Positions 5,440 to 36,942 of a stretch of DNA of 36,942 nucleotides are shown piece after piece. Every line of letters begins with the position of its first letter. Within the stretch, counting starts at the first letter, position 1. The notes beneath the pieces were generated by a model. The model was not told the DNA's origin and searched no databases. It saw only the letters and a list, made by a program, of their open reading frames with translations. Location: sequence record MZ318361, one strand, 5' to 3'. Made by a program: the position numbers and the translations under genes. This stretch comes from Escherichia phage T7.

Positions 5440-5592
5440 ATGTTTAAGAAGGTTGGTAAATTCCTTGCGGCTTTGGCAGCTATCCTGACGCTTGCGTATA
5501 TTCTTGCGGTATACCCTCAAGTAGCACTAGTAGTTGGCGCTTGTTACTTAGCGGCAGTGTGTGCTTGCGTGTGGAGTATAGTTAACTGGTAA
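5440..5592 (+). CDS. gp1.4: Gene 1.4 small hydrophobic protein
   Basis: ORF MFKKVGKFLAALAAILTLAYILAVYPQVALVVGACYLAAVCACVWSIVNW. Confidence 0.75.
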   Translation: MFKKVGKFLAALAAILTLAYILAVYPQVALVVGACYLAAVCACVWSIVNW

Positions 5593-7685: not shown

Positions 7686-8105
7686 GTGGAACTGCGGGAG
7701 AAAATCCTTGAGCGAATCAAGGTGACTTCCTCTGGGTGTTGGGAGTGGCAGGGCGCTACGAACAATAAAGGGTACGGGCAGGTGTGGTGCAGCAATACCG
7801 GAAAGGTTGTCTACTGTCATCGCGTAATGTCTAATGCTCCGAAAGGTTCTACCGTCCTGCACTCCTGTGATAATCCATTATGTTGTAACCCTGAACACCT
7901 ATCCATAGGAACTCCAAAAGAGAACTCCACTGACATGGTAAATAAGGGTCGCTCACACAAGGGGTATAAACTTTCAGACGAAGACGTAATGGCAATCATG
8001 GAATCCAGCGAGTCCAATGTATCCTTAGCTCGCACCTATGGTGTCTCCCAACAGACTATTTGTGATATACGCAAAGGGAGGCGACATGGCAGGTTACGGC
8101 GCTAA
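7686..8105 (+). CDS. gp2.8: Gene 2.8 HNH-endonuclease-like protein
   Basis: 139-aa ORF with GTG start; GCWEWQG...KGYG...H...HSCDNPLCCNPEHL motif, paralogous to gene 7.7. Confidence 0.8.
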   Translation: MELREKILERIKVTSSGCWEWQGATNNKGYGQVWCSNTGKVVYCHRVMSNAPKGSTVLHSCDNPLCCNPEHLSIGTPKENSTDMVNKGRSHKGYKLSDEDVMAIMESSESNVSLARTYGVSQQTICDIRKGRRHGRLRR

Positions 8106-21545: not shown

Positions 21546-21584
21546 CCCCTTGGGGCCTCTAAACGGGTCTTGAGGGGTTTTTTG
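21546..21584 (+). terminator. T7 RNAP terminator Tphi
   Basis: CCCCTTGGGGCCTCTAAACGGGTCTTGAGGGGTTTTTTG hairpin plus U-run. Confidence 0.9.
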
Positions 21585-33659: not shown

Positions 33660-33717
33660 TTGGTAAATCACAAGGAAAGACGTGTAGTCCACGGATGGAC
33701 TCTCAAGGAGGTACAAG

Positions 33718-33987
33718 ATGGAAAAGGATAAGAGCCTTATTACATTCTTAGAGATGTTGGACACTGCGATGGCTCAGCGTATGCTTGCGGACCTTTCGGA
33801 CCATGAGCGTCGCTCTCCGCAACTCTATAATGCTATTAACAAACTGTTAGACCGCCACAAGTTCCAGATTGGTAAGTTGCAGCCGGATGTTCACATCTTA
33901 GGTGGCCTTGCTGGTGCTCTTGAAGAGTACAAAGAGAAAGTCGGTGATAACGGTCTTACGGATGATGATATTTACACATTACAGTGA
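33718..33987 (+). CDS. gp18: DNA maturation/packaging protein A (small terminase)
   Basis: 89-aa ORF MEKDKSLITFLEMLDTAMAQRMLADLSDHERRSPQLYNAINKLL... Confidence 0.9.
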   Translation: MEKDKSLITFLEMLDTAMAQRMLADLSDHERRSPQLYNAINKLLDRHKFQIGKLQPDVHILGGLAGALEEYKEKVGDNGLTDDDIYTLQ

Positions 33988-34081
33988 CTCGAGAGGATCC
34001 ACTACAGATAGTGGTCTTTATGGATGTCATTGTCTATACGAGATGCTCCTACGTGAAATCTGAAAGTTAACGGGAGGCATT

Positions 34082-34513
34082 ATGCTAGAATTTTTACGTA
34101 AGCTAATCCCTTGGGTTCTCGCTGGGATGCTATTCGGGTTAGGATGGCATCTAGGGTCAGACTCAATGGACGCTAAATGGAAACAGGAGGTACACAATGA
34201 GTACGTTAAGAGAGTTGAGGCTGCGAAGAGCACTCAAAGAGCAATCGATGCGGTATCTGCTAAGTATCAAGAAGACCTTGCCGCGCTGGAAGGGAGCACT
34301 GATAGGATTATTTCTGATTTGCGTAGCGACAATAAGCGGTTGCGCGTCAGAGTCAAAACTACCGGAACCTCCGATGGTCAGTGTGGATTCGAGCCTGATG
34401 GTCGAGCCGAACTTGACGACCGAGATGCTAAACGTATTCTCGCAGTGACCCAGAAGGGTGACGCATGGATTCGTGCGTTACAGGATACTATTCGTGAACT
34501 GCAACGTAAGTAG
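34082..34513 (+). CDS. gp18.5: Rz-like inner-membrane spanin
   Basis: 143-aa ORF with N-terminal transmembrane segment LIPWVLAGMLFGLGW and coiled-coil-like remainder. Confidence 0.85.
   Translation: MLEFLRKLIPWVLAGMLFGLGWHLGSDSMDAKWKQEVHNEYVKRVEAAKSTQRAIDAVSAKYQEDLAALEGSTDRIISDLRSDNKRLRVRVKTTGTSDGQCGFEPDGRAELDDRDAKRILAVTQKGDAWIRALQDTIRELQRK
34197..34448 (+). CDS. gp18.7: Rz1-like outer-membrane lipoprotein spanin, embedded in gene 18.5 in another frame
   Basis: 83-aa ORF wholly inside 18.5; lipobox-like LICVATISGCAS followed by a proline-rich segment. Confidence 0.75.
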   Translation: MSTLRELRLRRALKEQSMRYLLSIKKTLPRWKGALIGLFLICVATISGCASESKLPEPPMVSVDSSLMVEPNLTTEMLNVFSQ

Positions 34514-36295: not shown

Positions 36296-36376
36296 TTTAT
36301 GCATTAGGACTGCATAGGGATGCACTATAGACCACGGATGGTCAGTTCTTTAAGTTACTGAAAAGACACGATAAAT

Positions 36377-36399
36377 TAATACGACTCACTATAGGGAGA
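36377..36399 (+). promoter_or_regulatory. T7 promoter phiOR (perfect consensus)
   Basis: TAATACGACTCACTATAGGGAGA. Confidence 0.9.
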
Positions 36400-36553
36400 G
36401 GAGGGACGAAAGGTTACTATATAGATACTGAATGAATACTTATAGAGTGCATAAAGTATGCATAATGGTGTACCTAGAGTGACCTCTAAGAATGGTGATT
36501 ATATTGTATTAGTATCACCTTAACTTAAGGACCAACATAAAGGGAGGAGACTC

Positions 36554-36703
36554 ATGTTCCGCTTATTGTTGAACCTACTGCGGCATAGAGTCACCTACCG
36601 ATTTCTTGTGGTACTTTGTGCTGACCTTGGGTACGCATCTCTTACTGGAGACCTCAGTTCACTGGAGTCTGTCGTTTGCTCTATACTCACTTGTAGCGAT
36701 TAG
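36554..36703 (+). CDS. gp19.5: Gene 19.5 small protein
   Basis: 49-aa ORF MFRLLLNLLRHRVTYRFLVVLCADLGYASLTGDLSSLESVVCSILTCSD after a GGGAGGAG Shine-Dalgarno. Confidence 0.7.
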   Translation: MFRLLLNLLRHRVTYRFLVVLCADLGYASLTGDLSSLESVVCSILTCSD

Positions 36704-36795: not shown

Positions 36796-36872
36796 ACCCA
36801 TAAAGAGCCTCTAATGGTCTATCCTAAGGTCTATACCTAAAGATAGGCCATCCTATCAGTGTCACCTAAAGA
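36796..36872. repeat. Right-end short CCTAAAG-like repeats adjacent to the right terminal repeat
   Basis: CCATAAAGAG, TCCTAAGGTC, ACCTAAAGAT, ACCTAAAGAG recur; window stops at ...ATCTGAGTGACTA, where I expect the right terminal repeat to begin. Confidence 0.55.
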
Positions 36873-36942
36873 GGGTCTTAGAGAGGGCCTATGGAGTTCC
36901 TATAGGGTCCTTTAAAATATACCATAAAAATCTGAGTGACTA

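Follow-up and report, generated by a model that had tools for sequence, protein, structure and literature searches.

The gene 18–18.5 spacer and its linker

Near its right end, the window (the whole 36,942-nt stretch that was analysed, MZ318361) carries gene 18, which encodes the small terminase subunit, followed by a short intergenic spacer and gene 18.5, which encodes an Rz-like spanin and has gene 18.7 nested within it (Table 1). Positions 33979–34010 read TTACAGTGA CTCGAG A GGATCC ACTACAGATA, and the first base of this XhoI–BamHI linker is the base directly 3' of the gene 18 stop codon. The sequence of reference T7 (V01146) at the linker position is TATACTCAAGGCC. Alignment of the two gave 11 mismatches in a row and no indels, with identical flanks, and the spacer between genes 18 and 18.5 measured 94 nt in both the window and T7 (36823–36916). 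The initial annotation had described a same-length, substitution-type engineered linker with unchanged gene spacing, and the exchange of 11 bases for 11 agrees with this description. It had also placed the 13-nt linker at the correct coordinates but had spelled it CTCGAG AG GGATCC, with one G too many, the true spacer being a single A. Apart from the linker, only three bases of the 3.2-kb right-end segment differed from T7. The linker was unchanged at passages 1, 10, and 20 (the window, MZ318362, and MZ318363, respectively), and was therefore tolerated by the phage. Strings that tell the two versions of the gene 18 site apart are CAGTGACTCGAGAGGATCCACTACAG, with the linker, and its alternative CAGTGATATACTCAAGGCCACTACAG.

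Table 1. Coordinates of the linker and of the features that bear on it (window positions unless marked T7).
Feature	Position	Strand	Remarks
Gene 10 polylinker of T7Select415-1b	21489..21534	+	BamHI, EcoRI, SacI, SalI, HindIII, NotI, XhoI
Gene 17.5 deletion junction	33717..33718	+	Scarless; T7 36344-36552 (209 nt) gone; gene 18 ATG replaces 17.5 GTG
Gene 18 (small terminase subunit)	33718..33987	+	Protein identical to T7; stop codon TGA at 33985-33987 adjoins linker
Promoter E remnant	33965..34001	+	ATGATA (33965-33970) and TG intact; -10 TATACT overwritten by CTCGAG
Intergenic hairpin	33981..34033 (T7 36816-36868)	+	Folds; conserved in T3, K11, KP32, and Yersinia phage
11-base substituted block	33988..33998	+	CTCGAGAGGAT replacing T7 36823-36833 TATACTCAAGG
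XhoI site CTCGAG	33988..33993	.	In place of T7 TATACT (promoter E -10 hexamer)
Single-base spacer A	33994		Between XhoI and BamHI sites
BamHI site GGATCC	33995..34000		GGAT new; last CC is native T7 36834-36835
Gene 18.5 (Rz-like spanin), gene 18.7 nested within	34082..34513	+	First gene downstream of linker

BamHI and XhoI each had exactly two sites in the window, BamHI at 21489 and 33995 and XhoI at 21529 and 33988, as anticipated when two cuts per enzyme were predicted from the initial reading. The gene 10 polylinker, which is of the pET type, holds the other pair, and an independent Logan contig (from SRR23446325) has the identical polylinker sequence; the linker thus repeats two polylinker sites, as had been claimed. 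V01146 was searched for BamHI sites, XhoI sites, and the linker 13-mer, and none of the three was found. The claim that wild-type T7 is devoid of BamHI sites was thereby borne out and extends to XhoI, and the 13-mer, whose presence in reference T7 had been named as the observation that would speak against an engineered origin, is absent from that genome. For a genome of 37,102 bp, with the right terminal repeat restored, the computed fragments are 21,489, 12,506, and 3,107 bp for BamHI and 21,529, 12,459, and 3,114 bp for XhoI. In practical terms, cutting this phage line with either enzyme drops an essential segment of about 12.5 kb that carries genes 11–18, and the only unique polylinker sites left are those of EcoRI, SacI, SalI, HindIII, and NotI.

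Native regulatory elements beneath the linker

The bases replaced by the linker belong to a conserved stretch. The native sequence TGATATACTCAAGG was nearly invariant across genera in an alignment of EG1, NC-A, T3, K11, a KP32 isolate, and a Yersinia phage, and the native form of the substituted block, TATACTCAAGG, was kept as far out as the Klebsiella phages. One element at this position is E. coli promoter E, which is annotated in V01146 with a start at 36836. A promoter scan of T7 recovered ATGATA and TATACT separated by 17 nt, with a TG upstream of the second hexamer (36800–36828), and because this TG is supplied by the gene 18 stop codon, promoter E can be read as an extended −10 promoter. 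The same scan of the window found no −35/−10 pair with a spacing of 16–18 nt at the promoter E site. In other words, the position, the −35-like hexamer, and the TG are common to T7 and the window, whereas the match to the −10 consensus is gone, and the comparison shows that the predicted −10 of this minor E. coli promoter was erased by the XhoI site. A promoter E feature is nevertheless still annotated at 34001 in MZ318362 and MZ318363; this annotation is evidently a stale carry-over that was transferred from V01146 by coordinates.

The second element is an RNA hairpin. From the end of gene 18, the T7 RNA was predicted to fold into a long hairpin with an internal loop (36816–36868), and seven natural phages share a consensus hairpin, most of whose pairs are invariant and a few of which are changed on one side. 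We take this hairpin to be the RNase III processing site R18.5, which is described as a strong RNase III site in a preprint (bioRxiv 10.1101/106799, citing Dunn and Studier 1983). A search of Rfam returned no family for the hairpin, and the match to RsmY was at chance level (13.9 bits against a gathering score of 57). The linker overlaps the conserved hairpin and takes the place of most of its 5' arm. Of the 19 consensus pairs, seven lost their native 5' partner, and four of these seven are unpaired when the register is kept. The apical stem (CCACTA/TAGTGG, 33999–34014), the loop, and the whole 3' arm, which holds the cleavage point, are native. This point is reported to lie at T7 36856 (window 34021), in the 3'-side loop UUUAU/GG (Dunn and Studier 1983). 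When the hairpin of the window was allowed to re-register, its predicted stability was similar, at −31.0 kcal/mol compared with −32.6 kcal/mol in T7, but the predicted fold departs from the internal-loop geometry that T7 RNase III sites typically show. We infer that the linker may have some effect on RNA processing.

Engineered origin and the background of the phage

The linker is not a product of chance, because the motif CTCGAGNGGATCC arose in none of 100 shuffles and because the right-end segment is otherwise nearly that of T7. Relatives of the locus were collected by a sensitive search that took the native intergenic region as query and returned 843 phage records with a homologous region, 105 of them at least 99% identical to wild-type T7; the only linker carriers among the 843 were MZ318362 and MZ318363. 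Likewise, megablast with the linker-containing region matched these two records at 100% and all other T7 records at 98.6%, no further record reaching 99%, and megablast of the linker region against complete E. coli genomes and PLSDB plasmids found no match. Natural variation, or a patch recombined in from a related phage, would have to explain why no natural relative among the 843 records has the sequence and how the change of all 11 of 11 bases happened to give two perfect commercial restriction sites, each a 6-bp palindrome. The exact 26-mer spanning the linker was also missing from collections of viral, metagenome, and genome contigs, which would count against a natural source as well; the T7Select capsid–polylinker junction, however, had no match in the same collections, and since these three collections are thus without any T7Select, the absence of the 26-mer is uninformative on the origin of the linker. 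The search of relatives and the alignment led us to reject natural polymorphism, in favour of which no point was found and whose probability we regard as practically nil. Judged from these comparisons, the sequence change is almost certainly engineered, and the interpretation given in the initial annotation is supported.

The linker belongs to a well-known kind of element, the synthetic restriction-site linker in a laboratory phage vector. It resembles linkers and scars of the T7Select gene 10 polylinker type in having adjacent common type II sites, in lying between genes after a stop codon, and in being non-coding, and it shares with known synthetic linkers the use of sites missing from the natural genome. 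We take the polylinker of pET-14b, 15b, 16b, and 19b to read CTCGAGGATCC, with XhoI overlapping BamHI; it has the same two enzymes in the same order and nearly touching. The window linker differs from it by two extra bases (AG) and by the lack of flanking vector sequence, and on these two grounds it would not be a copied vector fragment. Comparable engineered sites are the bracketing sites of Chan, Kosuri and Endy (2005), a strategy cited by the source paper. Unlike documented phage linkers, the present one is undocumented and non-unique, and it replaces native bases one for one instead of being inserted. It is unusual in three ways only, being undocumented, repeating polylinker sites, and sitting on a conserved regulatory element near the lysis genes in a strain that was made for work on lysis.

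The phage of the window is a derivative of T7Select415-1b with gene 17.5 (holin) deleted. According to Xu et al. (2021, Front Microbiol 12:705310; PMC8365609), the parent was commercial T7Select415-1b of 37,314 bp. The sister records MZ318362 and MZ318363 are Escherichia phage T7 isolates T7_del_holin_F10 and T7_del_holin_F20, of 36,942 bp each, and over their whole length they differ from the window by 5 and 9 bases, respectively; the differing positions include 3125, 13960, 14103, 21473, and 24553. The window fits the F1 column of Table 2 of PMC8365609 except at 14103, where the gene 5.3 change V49I is listed for F1 and is absent from the window. The C-to-A change at 21473 in MZ318362 and MZ318363 (passages 10 and 20) creates S344stop, by which the capsid polylinker tail is lost, an apparent case of selection against the C-terminal capsid extension of the vector. 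Compared with V01146, the window has the two T7Select deletions and a gene 10 end recoded with the polylinker. A 3-nt in-frame deletion (TAG, T7 7696–7698) at window position 5527 in gene 1.4 removes one valine from gp1.4, and most of the SNPs against V01146 are G:C-to-A:T transitions. The right 160-bp terminal repeat is missing, the sequence stopping at T7 39777, and was presumably collapsed in the assembly; the tally 36942 + 160 + 209 + 3 gives 37314, the stated length of T7Select415-1b.

The deletion junction itself departs from the published construction. The design in PMC8365609 is a 204-nt deletion made with the SphI-tailed primers R1 and F2, which leaves an SphI scar, so that the joint would read ...ACAAG GCATGC TATGT ATGG... 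(...ACAAGGCATGCTATGTATGG... is the alternative to the scarless junction). The window reads ...ACAAG ATGG..., lacks SphI sites (GCATGC) altogether, and falls 11 nt short of the length expected from the published design. Spontaneous loss of 11 nt with the SphI scar was considered and rejected, because there is no microhomology at the junction and because the ATG repeats would predict a 9-nt deletion. The scarless junction, the missing SphI scar, and the lack of microhomology together indicate that an undocumented variant of the design was followed when the sequenced phage was made, which speaks for the depositors as the source of the linker.

Other differences could be traced to the commercial lineage. 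Logan contigs from SRR9161225 and SRR23446325 were 100% identical to the window over 16308–20389 and 16624–18016. The changes gp7 V7M and gp7.7 G10D (16624 and 17352), which Table 2 of PMC8365609 lists as first-passage mutations, occur in the assemblies of these two samples, which are independent of the depositors; because these assemblies carry T7Select, both changes must pre-exist in the commercial stock, and by the same sequence comparison, many of the "F1 mutations" of PMC8365609 are really vendor-lineage variants. The T7Select-lineage contigs in SRR9161225 and SRR23446325 cover only genes 6.7–10. Exact look-ups of the capsid–polylinker protein and of gp7.7 G10D returned one 1.2-kb Logan contig and two short Logan contigs, respectively; that of gp19.5 A24D returned the sister deposits only and not the Logan T7Select samples, and that of gp19.3 R21K returned no match. 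The exact look-up of gp18 gave ten long T7 contigs; all ten had the wild-type sequence at the linker site, and none was of the T7Select lineage. None of these look-ups thus extended to the gene 18 region of a T7Select sample. In the right-end 3.2 kb, which was PCR-amplified according to PMC8365609, there are private SNPs at 36624 (gene 19.5 A24D), 35779, and 36789, and for gp19.5 A24D, a PCR error or early adaptation is a better fit than a variant of the vendor lineage. Around gene 10, a T-to-C change at 20401 destroys the natural XbaI site upstream of the gene, ACTAGTTAAC (SpeI/HpaI) stands in place of CTAGCATAAC at 21537–21547 before the T-phi terminator, and a PstI site at 21449 adjoins the recoded frameshift region. 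The independent T7Select contig includes the changes at 21449 and 21537–21547, whereas position 20401 is just outside it.

Introduction of the linker

As to who added the linker and why, we infer the following from the construction of the phage and from the published primers. We lean towards the view that the depositors introduced the linker when they constructed the holin-deletion phage and that it did not come from the commercial vector, whose T7Select backbone probably does not include it. The 13-mer is an artificial XhoI–BamHI handle that took the place of 11 native bases and encodes nothing, and its only designed function would be recognition by the enzymes, either as a ligation joint or as a site for later insertion. 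Most likely it entered through PCR-primer tails or a synthetic fragment during assembly of the holin-deletion phage; a fragment of genes 17 to 18 that bore the scarless deletion may have been joined at BamHI to a PCR-made right end, XhoI being an extra site. This would resemble the cloning style of the same group in 2018, when the homology arms of a shuttle plasmid were joined at BamHI and more sites were placed in primer tails, a likeness that argues for the depositors as the source.

The primers bear on the question in both directions. Primer R3 (CCTTGAGTATATCACTGTAA) is perfect to T7 36814–36833 and primer F18.5 (CTCAAGGCCACTACAGATAGT) to T7 36827–36847, and neither matches the window; R3 has its 5' end exactly where the substituted block stops on the right. 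Because both primers match T7 perfectly, the working reference of the depositors was, on this indirect evidence, presumably wild type at the linker site. On the sequenced genome, R3 has only nine matching 3' bases, and plaque PCR with R3 was reported as successful in PMC8365609. This success, together with the lack of any mention of the linker in the depositors' papers, counts against an introduction by them, as do the equal signals obtained by RT-qPCR with F18.5 for the parent and the holin-deletion phage, which would best fit the same template at this site in both phages. PMC8365609 and PMC5859711 describe SfiI/SphI and AseI/AflII/BamHI sites elsewhere and no BamHI/XhoI at gene 18, and literature searches found no description of a BamHI/XhoI site at gene 18 of T7Select.

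Two of these observations lend some weight to the idea that the linker was already in the physical T7Select415-1b stock as a relic of the making of the vector, was missing from the compiled vendor sequence on which the depositors designed their primers, and was inherited through the PCR-amplified right-end fragment. The depositors never mention making a linker, and the equal 18.5 RT-qPCR signals would be expected if parent and mutant shared the sequence at the primer site. Many further differences between the window and V01146, such as gp7 V7M and gp7.7 G10D, are vendor-lineage variants, and T7Select has other small engineered site changes (XbaI at 20401 and SpeI/HpaI before T-phi). However, a designer is unlikely to repeat two sites of the polylinker, the primers of the depositors are wild type at the linker site, and a vendor origin would leave the departure of the deletion junction from the published design unexplained. 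In addition, two laboratories have cloned through BamHI-cut T7Select, with BamHI/SmaI in T7Select10-3b and BamHI/SalI in T7Select1-2b, and one of them prepared a whole-proteome library through EcoRI/XhoI in a T7Select1-2b derivative. Second sites in the backbone would hamper such BamHI and XhoI cloning, which argues for the depositors as the source, with the restriction that the vectors were 10-3b and 1-2b and not 415-1b. The cloning reports also weigh less against the vendor because a three-arm ligation would be inefficient but not impossible. On balance, we regard an origin in the vendor stock as somewhat unlikely.

A different account is that the linker, and perhaps the scarless junction too, is not in the physical phage and got into the deposited sequence from an in-silico design that served for mapping, or from reads of a plasmid or amplicon that were assembled along with those of the phage. 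The junction as deposited is at odds with the wet-lab account, with no SphI site and 11 nt too few, R3 cannot anneal properly to the deposited sequence although it was reported to work, and the three deposits share their length and both unexplained features. Against this, the absence of the right terminal repeat points to de novo assembly and not to a consensus called on a vendor reference, and the records carry real lineage SNPs as well as passage-specific SNPs. Moreover, there is no obvious plasmid polylinker in which CTCGAGAGGATCC is fused in register to T7 on both sides, and an in-silico deletion from annotated coordinates would have taken 204 nt, not 209. An artefact of this kind is unlikely, and the introduction of the linker by the depositors during construction is the reading that we favour.

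The value of the linker is practical rather than biological: as an engineering artefact it is of low biological interest, and it bears on annotation, a promoter feature having been moved by coordinates onto a sequence without the promoter. For the holin study, it means that the phage in which holin loss was examined has an unreported change in conserved regulatory sequence just upstream of the spanin genes 18.5 and 18.7, a possible confound in a phage whose deposited junction is also unlike the published construction. Should the linker be a genuine second lesion that went unreported, it could alter the processing or expression of 18.5 and 18.7 and contribute to the lysis phenotype and to the adaptive path that were attributed to holin loss alone, a chain of effects that we consider quite unlikely. 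Read the other way, the stability of the linker over 20 passages would show that the conserved element is dispensable.
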